Positions 3,594 to 10,411 of a stretch of DNA of 64,000 nt are shown here, piece after piece. Below the pieces are notes generated by a model that was not told the origin of the DNA, searched no databases, and worked only from the letters and a program-made list of their open reading frames with translations. This DNA is from Nitratireductor sp. XY-223. Lineage in GTDB: Bacteria; Pseudomonadota; Alphaproteobacteria; Rhizobiales; Rhizobiaceae. Position 1 is the first letter of the stretch. Each line of letters begins with the position of its first letter. Position numbers and translations under genes: made by a program. Where the stretch lies: contig NZ_SPNT01000009.1 of the NCBI RefSeq assembly GCF_004959855.1, forward strand, positions 54,739 to 118,738, in the 5' to 3' direction.

Positions 3594-3743
3594 TGGCAAA
3601 GCGCGAACTGCCTGAAGATATTTCAAGACAGCACCAGGTTTGGCGGGCGGTTGAAACCGGAGGGGCCAGCCGTGATGCGCGGCCGTCAAATCCTTCCGGG
3701 CCGGCACGCCAGGCACGTTGTCGTCCAAAGGAGGCAGAGCATC

Positions 3744-4106
3744 ATGTGCATTTCAGTTGTCCGCAGAACCGCCGTCGTCGCCGCCTCGGCGATCCTGATC
3801 TCGACCGCTCTTGCGGGAACGGCCCATTCGGGAACCTGCACCATCCTGCAGAAACCCTACAGCACCGCCCAGTATGCGGCCGACAGTTGCTACAATTACG
3901 AGTTCGACTACGTCTATTCCAGCGGTCCGACCAGCGCCGCCGTTCCCTGGGGCTGGTCGAGCGTCAAACTGTGGCAGTCCAATTCCCCCTCCCAGTGCGC
4001 GGCCCTTTCCGCCGATTTCGGGCTGAAGCGCGCGCTCTACGAAGGCAGCCGGCACCTGTGCTGGCACCTTTATCTCAACGGGGCCTACAACCGCTCGAGC
4101 CAGTAA
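3744..4106 (+). CDS. Small secreted cysteine-containing protein (hypothetical), 120 aa
   Basis: Internal ATG at 3744 preceded by AAGGAGG at good spacing; N-terminal signal peptide (RRTAVVAASAILISTALAGTAHS); mature part has 4 Cys; no recognisable family. Confidence 0.6.
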   Translation: MCISVVRRTAVVAASAILISTALAGTAHSGTCTILQKPYSTAQYAADSCYNYEFDYVYSSGPTSAAVPWGWSSVKLWQSNSPSQCAALSADFGLKRALYEGSRHLCWHLYLNGAYNRSSQ

Positions 4107-4198: not shown

Positions 4199-4531
4199 AT
4201 GGGATATAAATCGACATTTGCCGCGGTCTTGATGGCCCTGTCCGTTGCTTCATACAGCCCCGCCCTTTCCCAGGCCGGGACGGGCGAACCGATCAGGCTG
4301 GCCCAGGCCACTTACGTGTATTCGTGCGTCGAATATTCAAATCCGCGACAGTTCTTCCTGGTCTACGCGTCATCGCGGGGCGGCTTCCGAACATGCGAAC
4401 TGGTCGGCTTCAGCCTGGCGGAGGCGTATGGGCGGGTCTGCTACTACCTGTCCGCAGGTACGTCGGCGCCCTCGCAATGGCCGCAATATGGCGGCGTGTC
4501 CATGTTCGGCATCGCCATACCGTTGTGCTGA
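4199..4531 (+). CDS. Small secreted cysteine-containing protein (hypothetical), 110 aa
   Basis: SD GAGGGAG before the ATG; signal peptide (STFAAVLMALSVASYSPALSQA); 4 Cys in mature region including a C-terminal Cys; same strand and immediately downstream of the previous small gene. Confidence 0.55.
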   Translation: MGYKSTFAAVLMALSVASYSPALSQAGTGEPIRLAQATYVYSCVEYSNPRQFFLVYASSRGGFRTCELVGFSLAEAYGRVCYYLSAGTSAPSQWPQYGGVSMFGIAIPLC

Positions 4532-5864: not shown

Positions 5865-6338
5865 ATGCGTCATGTCGATTTTTCACCCCTTTATCGCTCC
5901 ACCGTCGGATTCGACCGCCTGTTCACGATGCTTGACAGCCTCGCACAGCCGGATCAGAGCCAGACCTACCCGCCCTACAACATCGAAAGAACCGGGGAAA
6001 ATTCCTACCGGATCACCATGGCCGTTGCCGGCTTCGGTGATGACGATCTTTCGGTCGAGGCACGCGAACACGTGCTGACCGTCAAGGGCGAGAAGGCCGA
6101 CGAAAACGGCAAGGATGAAAGCGAATTCCTTTACCGCGGAATCGCAAAGCGCACGTTCGAGCGCCGCTTCCAGCTTGCCGAATATGTTGAGGTCAAGGGT
6201 GCCAAGCTCGAAAACGGGCTTCTCCACGTCGATCTCGTCCGCGAAATCCCCGAGGCCATGAAGCCGCGCCGGATCGCCATCTCGGTCGACAATTCCGCTG
6301 AAGCAACCAAGCAGATCGAAGCCGAAACGGTCGCCTGA
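5865..6338 (+). CDS. ibpA: Small heat shock protein, Hsp20/IbpA family
   Basis: Starting at MRHVDFSPLYRSTVGFDRLF the product aligns essentially end-to-end with E. coli IbpA (PYNIE, AVAGF, GLLHVDL, EAMKPRRI); GGAGG sits before the ATG at 5865. Confidence 0.85.
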   Translation: MRHVDFSPLYRSTVGFDRLFTMLDSLAQPDQSQTYPPYNIERTGENSYRITMAVAGFGDDDLSVEAREHVLTVKGEKADENGKDESEFLYRGIAKRTFERRFQLAEYVEVKGAKLENGLLHVDLVREIPEAMKPRRIAISVDNSAEATKQIEAETVA

Positions 6339-6360
6339 CCGTCAGGCTGATCCACAGCAA

Positions 6361-6390
6361 AACGGCGCCTTTCGGGGCGCCGTTTTCACG
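6361..6390. terminator. Intrinsic terminator hairpin (AACGGCGCC-tttcg-GGGCGCCGTTTT), likely bidirectional between hsp20 (+) and DoxX (-)
   Basis: GC-rich perfect stem followed by a short T-run, placed between convergent genes. Confidence 0.5.
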
Positions 6391-6409
6391 TGTGCGCCAA
6401 GCGCAGGGC

Positions 6410-6979
6410 TCAGGCGTAAGCGACCCGGCCCGTCCACCAGCGGGAAAGGAGGGAATCCAAGGATACGGATCCCGGCCCCTTGACCACCACGTAAACGAGC
6501 GGAAAGACCCAGAACAGCCGCTGATCGATGATCTCGGACGGTTGACCGTTGAAAAGCGTGCCGAGATCGACCCCGTGGCCGGTGACGTCCACATAGGTCT
6601 GCACGAAGATGAAGGCGATCATGCCCGTTGCGCCGATGCGCGAGAACAGGCCGAGAATGACAAGGATCGGCAGGATGAACTCGCCATAGGTGCCGGCGAC
6701 GACCATGAGATGGGTGGTCAGCGGCAGACCGCTGGTCTCGTATCCGGCCGCCTCGAACGCCTTGCCGGCGATCTGGATATAGGCGCCGTCGGAAACCTCG
6801 AAAAACCCGATCAGGCCGTCGCCGACCTTTGTCTTGGCGGAGTTCAGGTAGTAGACGTAGAGCGTCGCGGCGAGGACGAAGCGCGAGAACAGTCCCAGAA
6901 ACCAGCCGTCCGTGGCGCGCTCGATCGCGCCGAATACGCCGTCGTGCAACCGGCGGACCAGATCTATCAGCGATGTCAT
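6410..6979 (-). CDS. DoxX family membrane protein (BufD-like)
   Basis: 189 aa polytopic membrane protein with DoxX-like helices; last gene of the DUF2282-DUF692-DUF2063-DoxX operon. Confidence 0.75.
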   Translation of the reverse strand: MTSLIDLVRRLHDGVFGAIERATDGWFLGLFSRFVLAATLYVYYLNSAKTKVGDGLIGFFEVSDGAYIQIAGKAFEAAGYETSGLPLTTHLMVVAGTYGEFILPILVILGLFSRIGATGMIAFIFVQTYVDVTGHGVDLGTLFNGQPSEIIDQRLFWVFPLVYVVVKGPGSVSLDSLLSRWWTGRVAYA

Positions 6980-6999
6980 TTCAAATTCCCACCTTTAAC

Positions 7000-7803
7000 T
7001 CAGTCACGGGTTGCAATAGCGGTGAAAGCGCCGGCCTCGAGCATTGCGCCAATGGCCGCCGCGAGATCGAAATCCTGGGTCACGGCGGTGGCGGCATCGG
7101 CCGCCTCGCCGAGTGTCCCGCCGTCGATGAGCGCCAGCAGGAATTCCGCGCCGCCCCCGGGCAGTGACCTTACCTCGACATCGAATTCCCGCCGGGTGAC
7201 CAGGCCGTCTTCGGCGTTGCCGGGATCGATTCCGGCCAGATCCGCGCCGGAGCGGTTGGCCGAGAAGATGGACACGGCGGCGAAACGCGACCGCAGGATT
7301 CGTGTCGCCGGGTGTGCAATAAAGCGCTGATCCGCCAGTTCCTCGGGAGCAATCGCCGCGAGCGCGGCTGAATCCAGCGGCGGCGCGTCGGCGGCGTGGA
7401 AAGCGTGCAGCCAGGCACGCTCCAGACGCGCCACGTCGGGCAGGTAGGCCAGCTCTCTCACCGGCTCGAAACGTTCCAGGAATTCAGCGAAATCCCCGCC
7501 GTATCGAAACAGCAGCGGCGATTGCGGCTGGCGTTCGCGCACGTAGCTGCGCGCCATGGCGCGAAAGAATTCGTCACCGACAAGCCGGTGAATGGCCGGG
7601 TAGATGTCGAAGAGCGCGCCGATCAGTCCGACCGTGACGTTGTTGCGATAGACATTATACCGCTTGTCCGCCTTCTTGCCGTTCGGACCGACAAGGCCCG
7701 CGGGCGTCGGCTGACCGGGATCCAGCAGGGCGCCCGAGAACCGGCCCAGCGTCACCGCCGATTCTGACTCTCCGGCATCGCCGATGTTATCCGGCCGCGG
7801 CAT
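7000..7803 (-). CDS. DUF2063 domain protein (BufC-like partner of the MNIO enzyme)
   Basis: Characteristic DUF2063 sequence (NVYRNNV, LRERFP..AYLPDVARLERAW). The start is uncertain: ATG at 7803 overlaps the DUF692 stop by ~16 nt, and the longer in-frame start at 7896 is the alternative. Confidence 0.7.
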   Translation of the reverse strand: MPRPDNIGDAGESESAVTLGRFSGALLDPGQPTPAGLVGPNGKKADKRYNVYRNNVTVGLIGALFDIYPAIHRLVGDEFFRAMARSYVRERQPQSPLLFRYGGDFAEFLERFEPVRELAYLPDVARLERAWLHAFHAADAPPLDSAALAAIAPEELADQRFIAHPATRILRSRFAAVSIFSANRSGADLAGIDPGNAEDGLVTRREFDVEVRSLPGGGAEFLLALIDGGTLGEAADAATAVTQDFDLAAAIGAMLEAGAFTAIATRD

Positions 7804-8710
7804 GGCGGCTCCCCAGCAGATAGTTCGCGGACCGTTTTTCCAGGATGCCTTCGGCGCGCAGCGCCTCGCGCCGCAGGACCGGCCATTCGGGAACATCGTT
7901 GTCCCATTCGATCAGTGTCGGAACCGGCCCCATCTGGCCGATGACGATGTCGTAGAGCTTCCACACCTCGTCATCGACGGGACGGTCGTGGGCGTCGATC
8001 AGCAGCGGATCGCCCTCGTCGTCGATATCGGTGGCATGGCCGGCAAGGTGTATCTCCTCGACCTTTTCCAGCGGGAACTGCGAGAGATAGGTCAGCGGCC
8101 TGTATTTCTGGTTGGTGGCGGAAACGAAGACATTGTTGATGTCGAGCAGCAGCCCGCAGCCCGTGCGCCGGGCGATCTCGGATATGAATTCGGTCTCGCT
8201 CATCGACGATTGCTCGAACTGCACGTAGGTCGACGGGTTTTCCAGGATGATCGTGCGGCCGAGCACATCCTGCACGCGCTCGATATGCGCGCACACGCGG
8301 TCGAGGGTTGCCCGGTCATAGGGGACCGGCAGCAGGTCGTTGTAGTAGCTCGTATCGTGGGTGGACCAGGCGAGATGCTCCGATACGAGGCCCGGTTCAT
8401 AGCGGTCGACAACGCGCTTGAGGCGCGCAATGTGTTCCTCGTCGAGGCCTTTTTCGCTGCCGATAGACAGGCCGACACCGTGAACGGAGAGCGGGAAATT
8501 CTGGCGAATCGCTGTCAGTGCCCTGTGCGGTGCGCCGCCGTCGCCCATATAGTTTTCGGCGTGCACTTCCAGAAAGCCGATGCGGTAGTCGTCCTGCAGA
8601 ATCTGGTCGATATGGGACGGCTTCAGACCGGCCCCGGCGCGTGCGGGAATGGTGCGGTCCGTGAAGTCCGCATTCGCGTTGCCGTCCCTCCAGGTGGGAA
8701 TGTCTGTCAT
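7787..8710 (-). CDS. DUF692 / MNIO (multinuclear non-heme iron oxidative) enzyme, BufB-like RiPP maturase
   Basis: 307 aa with DUF692/UPF0276 TIM-barrel features (GLKPSHIDQIL, FLEVHAENY, HGVGLSIGS, EHLAWS, LENPSTY); sits directly downstream of a Cys-rich precursor gene. Confidence 0.8.
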   Translation of the reverse strand: MTDIPTWRDGNANADFTDRTIPARAGAGLKPSHIDQILQDDYRIGFLEVHAENYMGDGGAPHRALTAIRQNFPLSVHGVGLSIGSEKGLDEEHIARLKRVVDRYEPGLVSEHLAWSTHDTSYYNDLLPVPYDRATLDRVCAHIERVQDVLGRTIILENPSTYVQFEQSSMSETEFISEIARRTGCGLLLDINNVFVSATNQKYRPLTYLSQFPLEKVEEIHLAGHATDIDDEGDPLLIDAHDRPVDDEVWKLYDIVIGQMGPVPTLIEWDNDVPEWPVLRREALRAEGILEKRSANYLLGSRHAAAG

Positions 8711-8791
8711 CGGATGTCCTGCGCCTTTACGCCCTTACGCATGAGACCGGCCGCCCGCAATTCCAGGCAGCCGGCCGGTATTCAGCCAGAA

Positions 8792-9094
8792 TCAGGCAGG
8801 AATGTCGCGATCGAGCGGCTCAAGCGATCCAACGCGTCCGCCCGGCAGTTCCATCGTTGCGCATGTGCCGTTTTCAACCAGCTTCCAGGCATTGCCCTGA
8901 TAGTCGACGGTCGATGTGCCGGCGCAGGTGGTTCCGGGACCGGCCGCGCAGTCGTTCTGACCGGCCAGCGAGACGCCGTAGCATTTTTCCTTGGCGGAAG
9001 CGGCGGTCGTCGATGCAACAAGGGTCGCGCCCGAAAGGGCCATGGCGACGGCACCGGCAACAGCGGAAGCGCCAACAAGTGTTTTCTTGGACAT
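8792..9094 (-). CDS. DUF2282 family precursor peptide (bufferin-like, BufA-type): Sec signal peptide plus Cys-rich core
   Basis: ATG at 9094 preceded by AAGGAGA; [34 protein letters not shown] signal; core [26 protein letters not shown]...GTCATMEL with 4 Cys and the CYGV / NDCA motifs typical of DUF2282. Confidence 0.75.
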
Positions 9095-9355
9095 GGGATT
9101 CTCCTTGGGAGTTCGGAATTTAGGTGGTGACACTTTTCGTTCCCCGGTTGTCGCCGGGACGAGCGGAGTTTCTGAAAATCGCGGATAAATTGGAAATCAA
9201 CAGCGTGTTATCTCCTGTCGTTGTCGCGTGACATTCCCGTTACGGAATGCGGCCTCAAACTCAACGCGGAGCGTTTTCAGTCAATTACGTGCGGAACAAC
9301 CGGGATCCGAACCGCTTTTTTCCCGGTCGGCAACCACGCGTTACAGGTTACTGTC

Positions 9356-10411
9356 TCAGGTCTCCTGCAGCAAGGCGGCGAAATCGCGGACATGTTCCGG
9401 CGTTGTCGCGAATCCGGTCACGAGCCGCGTGATGATTTCGTTATCGCCCACAAGTTCCGCGGCAAAGCGCGGCGTCTTCCACTCATAAAACTGCGCGCCC
9501 TTCTCGATCATCGCCGCAAAGCGGTCGCGGTCCAGGATGGCGAACACCTCGTTGGCCTGGCTCCGCCATGCGAGTCGGGTATTATCGGCAGCCTCGATGA
9601 CCGACTGGAGTTCGGCGGCCATGGCATTGGCATGGGCGGCCGTCTCGATCCACAGGTCGTCCTCGAAATAGGCCTCGAGCTGCGCCGAGATGAACCGGCT
9701 TTTGGAAAAAAGATGCGCCGAGCGCTTGCGCAGGAACGGAAGATCCGCGGCTTTTTGAGGATCAAAGACAACGAGAACCTCGGCGCACCAGCATCCGTTC
9801 TTGGTCGCGCCGAAGGACAGGATATCGACGCCGCGGCGCCAGGTCATTTCAGCGGGGCTCTGCCCCAGCGCCGTCATGGCGTTGGCGAAGCGGGCGCCGT
9901 CCATGTGCAGCGGCAGGCCGTGGCGCCGGCAGGTTTCCACGACCGCCTCGATCTCCGCGGCCTCGTAGACCGTGCCGATCTCCGTCGACTGCGAGATGCT
10001 GGCGGCCATCGGCTGGCCGGCGTGCACGAACTCCGGGGGAAAGCGGCGGATGGCGGCGTCGAGATCCTGCGGGTCGATCTTGCCCAGCTTCCCGTCGACC
10101 GGCTCGAGGCGGATGCCGCCTCCCAGGAATTGCGGCGCGCCGCCCTCGTCCTCGATCAGATGCGCCTCGCGGTGGCAGAAGGCGACGCCGCCCGGCCTGC
10201 CGAGCGCCGCCATGGCGAGGGAATTCGCCGCCGTACCGGTTCCGACAAAGAAGACCGCCACCTCGCGCTCGAATATGTCGTTGAACTTCGCCTCGACCTT
10301 GCGGTCCAGATCGCTGAGACCGTAGGCGGCGGCAAACCCGGAGGCGTGGCGGGTGAGCGCCTCGGCGATGCGCGGGTGGGCACCGGCCCAGTTGTCTGAG
10401 GAAAACTGCAT
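9356..10411 (-). CDS. ltaE: Low-specificity L-threonine aldolase (PLP beta-eliminating lyase family)
   Basis: Threonine aldolase-like N-terminus MQFSSDNWAGAHP and a PLP-lysine region (SFGATKNG). An earlier in-frame start at 10453 is possible. Confidence 0.7.
   Translation of the reverse strand: MQFSSDNWAGAHPRIAEALTRHASGFAAAYGLSDLDRKVEAKFNDIFEREVAVFFVGTGTAANSLAMAALGRPGGVAFCHREAHLIEDEGGAPQFLGGGIRLEPVDGKLGKIDPQDLDAAIRRFPPEFVHAGQPMAASISQSTEIGTVYEAAEIEAVVETCRRHGLPLHMDGARFANAMTALGQSPAEMTWRRGVDILSFGATKNGCWCAEVLVVFDPQKAADLPFLRKRSAHLFSKSRFISAQLEAYFEDDLWIETAAHANAMAAELQSVIEAADNTRLAWRSQANEVFAILDRDRFAAMIEKGAQFYEWKTPRFAAELVGDNEIITRLVTGFATTPEHVRDFAALLQET

Follow-up and report, generated by a model that had tools for sequence, protein, structure and literature searches.

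A probable Buf1-type bufferin operon with a conserved intercistronic stem-loop in Nitratireductor sp. XY-223

A 64,000-nucleotide stretch of contig NZ_SPNT01000009.1 from Nitratireductor sp. XY-223 (hereafter the window, in which positions are counted from its first nucleotide) contains four co-directional genes at 6410–9094. With a probability of roughly 85%, these genes constitute a canonical Buf1-type bufferin ('captophorin') operon, bufABCD, on the chromosome of this organism, a Buf1-type cluster being defined as in the published work (PMC11626156, PMC12452194). The family membership of the four genes, the anatomy of the operon, the conserved cysteines of the precursor, seven aligned ligand positions in the maturase and the terminator at the operon end are established. 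The system is already known, the family having been characterized in 2024–2026 and named in public databases. The added value of the present analysis is mildly new and lies in a conserved stem-loop between bufA and bufB and a clade-specific element upstream of bufA.

All four genes are encoded on the minus strand and are packed or overlapping, as the initial annotation of this DNA described them (Table 1). Profile searches bear out the assignment of the first three to DUF2282, DUF692 and DUF2063, with scores far above the Pfam cutoffs. BufA matches DUF2282 (PF10048) over residues 35–86 at 87.1 bits (cutoff 22.4, E = 7.7e-25), BufB matches the MNIO family MbnB_TglH_ChrH (PF05114) at 356.5 bits (cutoff 25, E = 1e-106), and BufC matches DUF2063 (PF09836) at 85.4 bits (cutoff 27.2). 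The reading of the genes as a bufferin-type cluster is likewise upheld: gene content, order and families are those of Buf1-type systems, and BufB passes the cutoff of the NCBIfam equivalog 'MNIO family bufferin maturase' (NF050167; 387.3 bits, cutoff 310). Comparisons were made across a set of 78 related alphaproteobacterial loci. The closest relatives keep the identical four-gene order, and there too bufB, bufC and bufD overlap or are tightly spaced.

Consecutive RefSeq entries from Nitratireductor sp. XY-223, WP_136660842 to WP_136660845, are exact matches to all four proteins. BufA is 100% identical to WP_136660845.1, and WP_136660843.1 matches BufC exactly, the start of bufC included. UniRef names these same proteins as BufA1 family periplasmic bufferin-type metallophore, MNIO family bufferin maturase, HvfC/BufC N-terminal domain-containing protein and DoxX family protein. 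Contrary to what had been supposed, these genes are thus neither an unrecognized system nor still labeled hypothetical, because the exact proteins already carry bufferin-family names.

Residues 1–34 of BufA form, as judged from sequence features, a Sec-type signal peptide that ends in ASA and is followed by Lys. The hydropathy profile and the AXA motif place the start MSKK (K3, K4) before an Ala/Val/Leu hydrophobic stretch at residues 5–27 and the ASA at −3 to −1, and the Pfam DUF2282 domain begins exactly after the predicted ASA34 cleavage site. The remaining core of 66 residues (35–100) has a computed monoisotopic mass of 6742.15 Da when unmodified; a loss of 10.08 Da on maturation would bring this to about 6732.07 Da. 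It contains four Cys, at precursor positions 38, 49, 57 and 78 (core positions 4, 15, 23 and 44), which are conserved across the related loci and invariant in 49 BufA homologs, as is their context KC.G...NDCAAG.GT.C.GTS. The motifs KEKCYGV, NDCA, TCAGT and GTCAT, previously picked out in the precursor, are all present in BufA. Sequence searches returned no solved structure for BufA or BufC. Beyond the Pfam domain, a C-terminal tail (residues 87–100; 8795–8836, minus strand) is invariant or nearly so in the 49 homologs, and about half of the 78 loci have it.

Several solved MNIO structures can be aligned to BufB, among them 3BWW (E = 5e-38) and entries for MbnB and TglH-like proteins. BufB residues H112, E157, D190, N193, H221, D239 and H241 align with MbnB H90, E133, D163, N166, H192, D208 and H210, which are iron ligands in MbnB (PMC8888699); the first and last BufB ligands, H77 and E268, were placed by motif alone. 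BufB falls under the NCBIfam cutoffs for HvfB, ApyH, MbnB and ChrH. The oxazolin/fontiphorin systems (HvfABC, FonABC; PMC13097082) resemble the present operon in combining an MNIO enzyme with a DUF2063-type partner, often with DoxX, to turn Sec-exported, Cys-rich precursors into 5-thiooxazole copper binders. However, their precursors contain EGKCG repeats, of which BufA has none, and membership of the oxazolin/HvfABC group was rejected on this feature together with the scores of the HvfB (239.1 bits, cutoff 360) and HvfC (38.8 bits, cutoff 142) models. Methanobactin membership was rejected on the score of the MbnB model (56.9 bits, cutoff 325) and on the identity of the partner, which is DUF2063 and not MbnC. 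MbnABC shares with the bufferin system an MNIO enzyme that oxidizes Cys of a ribosomal peptide to yield a copper chelator, and has iron-ligand positions in common with it. In contrast, it employs the MbnC partner and a short leader–core precursor lacking a Sec signal, its product carries oxazolone-thioamide, and methanobactin scavenges copper whereas bufferin buffers it.

The assignment of the fourth gene to DoxX holds in a qualified form. BufD scores 22.4 bits against the Pfam DoxX model, marginally under the cutoff of 23.6. Four of five BufD orthologs scanned against the same model score 26–30 bits and one scores 23.1; in other loci, the shorter genes downstream of bufC reach 55–67 bits. Profile–profile comparison of the BufD group with the canonical DoxX group gives a probability of 98.7% (E = 1.5e-16). 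Judged by these profiles, BufD belongs to DoxX but has diverged, is longer and carries loop insertions. The DoxX component exists also as a divergent long form able to fall just under the Pfam threshold. This long form occurs only in loci whose BufA carries the C-terminal tail; the tail could be a recognition element, or could merely reflect shared clade ancestry.

The closest characterized counterpart is Caulobacter vibrioides bufA1B1C1D1 (CCNA_03363–03366; PMC11626156), in which the four families and their order are identical, BufB belongs to the same equivalog family, and the precursor is likewise of about 100 residues, with a Sec leader, four Cys and a core of 66–68 residues. The C. vibrioides operon differs in that BufD of Nitratireductor is longer and divergent (189 residues, with insertions) and a conserved stem-loop is present here between bufA and bufB. 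In Buf1 of C. vibrioides, only the two central Cys are converted to 5-thiooxazoles, while the first and last are joined by a disulfide, for a total change of −10 Da. Binding of Cu(II) and Cu(I) by the product is very tight. Modification requires BufB and BufC, which together suffice for it, and DoxX, a frequent member of such clusters, is dispensable (PMC11626156). The figure of −4 Da per modified Cys given in the initial annotation agrees with this published chemistry. 5-Thiooxazoles have been confirmed across the enzyme group, with the structure of oxazolin revised to 5-thiooxazole (PMC13097082).

By homology with the C. vibrioides model, BufA would be synthesized with its Sec signal peptide and, prior to export, C49 and C57 would be oxidized to 5-thiooxazoles by BufB, an iron enzyme, acting with its partner BufC. 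The peptide would then be exported and cut after ASA34, and the outer residues C38 and C78 would form a disulfide. The resulting 66-residue periplasmic product would take up excess copper via its thiooxazoles, with the DoxX-like BufD in an accessory role. By analogy with Buf1 (PMC11626156), it is most likely that the central Cys are converted to thiooxazoles and that the product binds copper.

Table 1. Features of the bufABCD region, in window coordinates.
Feature	Position	Strand	Description
bufA	8792–9094	-	BufA1/DUF2282 precursor, 100 aa
bufB	7787–8710	-	MNIO (DUF692) maturase, 307 aa
bufC	7000–7803	-	DUF2063 (HvfC/BufC) partner, 267 aa; ATG 17 nt inside the end of bufB
bufD	6410–6979	-	Divergent DoxX-family membrane protein, 189 aa; starts 20 nt after bufC
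bufA Shine-Dalgarno AAGGAG	9101–9106	-	AGGAG core invariant in 20 aligned loci
Intercistronic stem-loop	8745–8779	-	Begins 15 nt after the bufA stop; no U-tract
GC stem-loop, presumed 5' leader	9137–9162	-	CCCGG-cgacaa-CCGGG core, -12.2 kcal/mol
Upstream element TAACACGCTGTTGATTTCCA	9191–9210	-	Candidate -35 box or operator; single occurrence in the window
Bidirectional intrinsic terminator AAAACGGCGCC-ccgaaa-GGCGCCGTTTT	6359–6386	.	Between bufD and convergent hsp20; marks the operon end

The hairpin that the initial annotation placed between the precursor and maturase genes is real, and its coordinates were right within 1 nucleotide (nt). Its arms are ACCGGCCG (8779–8772) and CGGCCGGT (8753–8746), and in the minimum-energy fold 13 bp of stem enclose a 6-nt loop (8776–8745), leaving 34 nt between hairpin and bufB ATG. 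Folded alone, the hairpin has an energy of −28.3 kcal/mol (z = −5.2) and none of 200 shuffles is as stable, in a test that was post hoc. A dispersed repeat was considered and rejected, the hairpin arm having no second exact copy in the 64-kb window; a listing of inverted repeats was uninformative on this region, as G–U pairs are not counted in it. In the bufferin literature searched, such a bufA–bufB hairpin is not mentioned.

Comparison with relatives provides stronger evidence than folding of the window sequence. In a set consisting of the window and nine close relatives (BufA 83–100% identical), the spacer has a mean column identity of 52%, yet RNAalifold recovers one 11-bp stem in which 92.7% of cells are paired. 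Compensatory changes occur at five stem pairs, a level reached by none of 500 shuffles, and sliding the pairing partner by 1–3 columns lowers pairing to 19–49%. Across the 78 loci, spacer length is bimodal. Spacers of 50–201 nt are found in 43 loci. In all but one of these (42/43), the spacer forms a hairpin at least as stable as −15 kcal/mol, whose median distance from the bufA stop is 15 nt. This hairpin is more stable than 95% of dinucleotide shuffles in 18 loci by a permissive measure and in 26 by a strict one, against about 2–3.5 expected; the strict parser misses stems with larger internal loops, and the permissive measure also lets shuffles fold better and so gives weaker per-locus p-values. 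Hairpin sequences are unrelated between clades. A T-rich tail follows the hairpin in only five loci, including the closest relative, Hoeflea poritis, where it consists of six T.

Several observations weigh against a functional reading of the stem-loop and, with it, against the fuller interpretation of the operon. Spacers shorter than 50 nt occur in 35 of the 78 loci and are all without a hairpin, which makes the structure dispensable; by the permissive measure, the window hairpin has a shuffle p-value of 0.10; and it is followed by TCTCATGCG, with no U-tract. The first two of these would also be expected if the hairpin had no regulatory role and were a neutral GC-rich palindrome, or the remnant of a palindromic element, in a non-essential spacer. 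The same explanation would account for the weak signal of the wider 101 nt around the hairpin (z = −1.75) and for hairpin sequences that vary between clades, as insertion would give. We nevertheless regard it as unlikely: a neutral palindrome is hard to square with a stem that stays paired while its flanking spacer diverges, with the five double-sided pair changes and the loss of pairing on sliding, with the lack of another exact arm copy in the window, or with the near-universal presence of hairpins in long-spacer loci and their excess over shuffles. On the aligned sequences, the bufA–bufB hairpin is evolutionarily maintained and appears selected in many lineages, yet it is dispensable, and in the window it is not a canonical intrinsic terminator.

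What the maintained hairpin does can be proposed with something approaching, though short of, an even chance of being right: it may raise the ratio of precursor to enzyme transcript, an idea close to the intra-operon attenuator suggested in the initial annotation. Transcription might terminate in part at the hairpin, or the hairpin might shield the 3' end of the bufA segment, and the strong, invariant ribosome-binding site of bufA would add to the precursor excess. Such a role in stoichiometry fits because there is precedent in microcin C, because bufA has a strong AGGAG site and bufB a weaker AGGA, and because the peptide is consumed one per copper ion whereas the enzymes act repeatedly. In microcin C mccA–mccB (PMC6495379), a hairpin likewise separates a short precursor gene, which it immediately follows, from the enzyme genes, and gives excess precursor transcript. 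Unlike the bufA–bufB hairpin, which has no U-tract and is known from sequence, the mcc terminator has been shown experimentally and is coupled to ribosome binding.

Upstream of bufA, a conserved element of the form TAAC-N6-TTGATTTCCA is found, with TTGATTTCCA at 9191–9200. The TTGATTTCCA core lies 82–111 nt upstream of the bufA ATG in 20 of the 78 loci and is preceded by TAAC or TCAC in 18 of these 20. No convincing −10 box follows the TTGATT of the element, and a sigma-70 promoter scan of 6200–9500 gave no match. In 19 of the 20 loci a stem begins 38–44 nt after TTGATT, its sequence differing by locus (CCCCC/GGGGG, GGGTC/GACCC, CCGGAC/GTCCGG); these leader hairpins are out of register in the MAFFT alignment and are described locus by locus. 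An Rfam scan of 6200–9500 (E ≤ 1) returned only three sub-threshold small RNA matches, none of them for the leader element. As a sequence pattern, the upstream element with its leader stem-loop resembles a promoter or an operator with a structured leader behind it.

This arrangement differs from those of Caulobacter and Sinorhizobium meliloti. The sigmaF site of Caulobacter crescentus is GTAACC-N16-CGAA (PMC3511200). A scan of the window for this ECF16 motif gave only near-matches with CGAC, 3 in all where 1.27 would be expected, a count that 15 of 100 shuffles also reach. An ECF16 sigmaF promoter for bufA was rejected: two near-matches end in CGAC and not CGAA, they are conserved in none of the 24 closest loci, and they are within chance. 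The motif is absent in these 24 loci and present in eight more distant ones. Regulation of buf1 in the Nitratireductor/Hoeflea clade thus does not appear to involve an ECF16 sigmaF promoter, unlike that of C. vibrioides Buf1 with its adjacent sigF-nrsF. Sinorhizobium meliloti SMb20530–SMb20527, of the RpoE7/ECF16 regulon (PMC6180224), similarly encodes a small membrane or secreted protein, DUF692 and DUF2063 proteins and a fourth conserved hypothetical gene. In contrast to the operon described here, it diverges from rpoE7-ecfR7 and has the promoter TGTAAC-N17-CGAA (PMC6180224).

On the same unfavorable side of the balance as the short spacers stands the regulatory context. The flanking genes include no sigF-nrsF pair, nor do ten smaller open reading frames (ORFs) elsewhere in the window that were scanned for sigma and anti-sigma factors and encode just housekeeping and DUF proteins, and there is no conserved ECF16 promoter; copper responsiveness is consequently a presumption here. 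For this organism, the chemistry, the export, the binding of copper and the induction by copper are all extrapolated from the model system. It may be speculated, with considerable doubt, that buf1 in this clade was rewired from ECF16 to another regulator acting at TAAC-N6-TTGATTTCCA, and that two selected RNA structures, one in the leader and one after bufA, set mRNA stability and the precursor-to-enzyme ratio. If so, the leader and intercistronic stem-loops would be RNA structures not described for bufferins.

The same upstream region invites the explanation that the operon makes a bufferin, but for a stress other than copper (another metal, oxidative stress or sulfur) under a different regulator. 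Such a role would suit the finding that the closest relatives lack GTAACC-N16-CGAA ahead of bufA, the non-conserved CGAC near-matches of the window, the lack of an adjoining sigma or anti-sigma gene, and the presence of a different conserved upstream element. The promoter of the orthologous S. meliloti operon is not induced by H2O2, Cd or chromate, and copper is not among the conditions listed (PMC6180224); published bufferin work itself raises other metals and stresses. Every characterized member of the enzyme/precursor group, however, binds copper (PMC11626156; PMC13097082), and the copper-coordinating Cys and their sequence context are invariant. A non-copper role is accordingly judged improbable, and copper buffering is retained as the probable function of the operon.

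It is more improbable still that the bufA–bufB hairpin is a full terminator, leaving bufA monocistronic and bufBCD transcribed from a promoter of their own in the spacer. The six T after the H. poritis hairpin and the T-rich tails in four more loci are of the kind such a terminator would have, and stand-alone bufferin precursor genes exist (PMC12452194). In the window, however, TCTCATGCG takes the place of a U-tract, whereas the operon-end terminator has one; a mere 34 nt remain before the bufB ATG, in which the promoter scan saw no promoter-like site; and the order of the four genes, with bufB, bufC and bufD overlapping or close together, is conserved. The operon-end terminator has a stem of 11 bp between an A-tract and a T-tract, the 65-nt region has a folding energy of −30.6 kcal/mol (z = −2.67), and a weak Rfam match to STnc320 (6359–6389) corresponds to this terminator. 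Least credible of all is an oxazolone-thioamide modification as in methanobactin, which has the same mass as 5-thiooxazole, was the first assignment for oxazolin (PMC11252979) and finds an echo in the weaker similarity of BufB to HvfB (239 bits) and MbnB (57 bits), since BufB passes the bufferin equivalog cutoff only and stays under those for HvfB (360) and MbnB (325), nuclear magnetic resonance data on Buf1 support thiooxazoles (PMC11626156), and oxazolin has since been revised to 5-thiooxazole (PMC13097082).

The bufABCD operon is set among housekeeping genes. On the bufD side, hsp20 (5865–6338) is convergent with bufD and shares its terminator; beyond it lie an alpha/beta hydrolase gene and then genes for a 7TMR-DISM histidine kinase and a NarL-type regulator. 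Upstream of bufA, a beta-eliminating lyase gene is kept in relatives, and gltB is found on the other side. The interval from the two-component system to the hydrolase gene contains two small ORFs, at 3651–4106 (plus strand, 151 residues) and 4199–4531 (plus strand, 110 residues). Both have high third-position GC and no Pfam match, and the second has a signal-peptide-like N-terminus. An antisense ORF of 448 residues (7784–9130, plus strand) runs across bufA and bufB, and several other long antisense ORFs occur nearby; these are the usual artifact of DNA with about 63% GC and are not genes. A second, decayed buf1 copy is present in a Hoeflea metagenome-assembled genome (contig L089, 5001–6674). 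Its bufA (84% identical) and DoxX gene (76%) are intact, only residues 22–72 of bufB and 148–264 of bufC remain, and insertion sequence transposases flank it. The BufA protein of this decayed copy (P0024) is also listed for Nitratireductor sp. XY-223.

These results confirm the annotation of the locus, in a marine member of the Phyllobacteriaceae, as a copper-buffering bufferin operon, a name it already had in databases. Many alphaproteobacterial buf1 operons keep a stable stem-loop after the precursor gene, covarying among close relatives, and this suggests post-transcriptional over-production of a stoichiometrically consumed peptide relative to its catalytic enzymes. Knowledge of such a mechanism would be useful for the design of heterologous expression constructs. 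Clades also differ in regulation, with an ECF16 promoter in some loci and another conserved element in the clade of the window.

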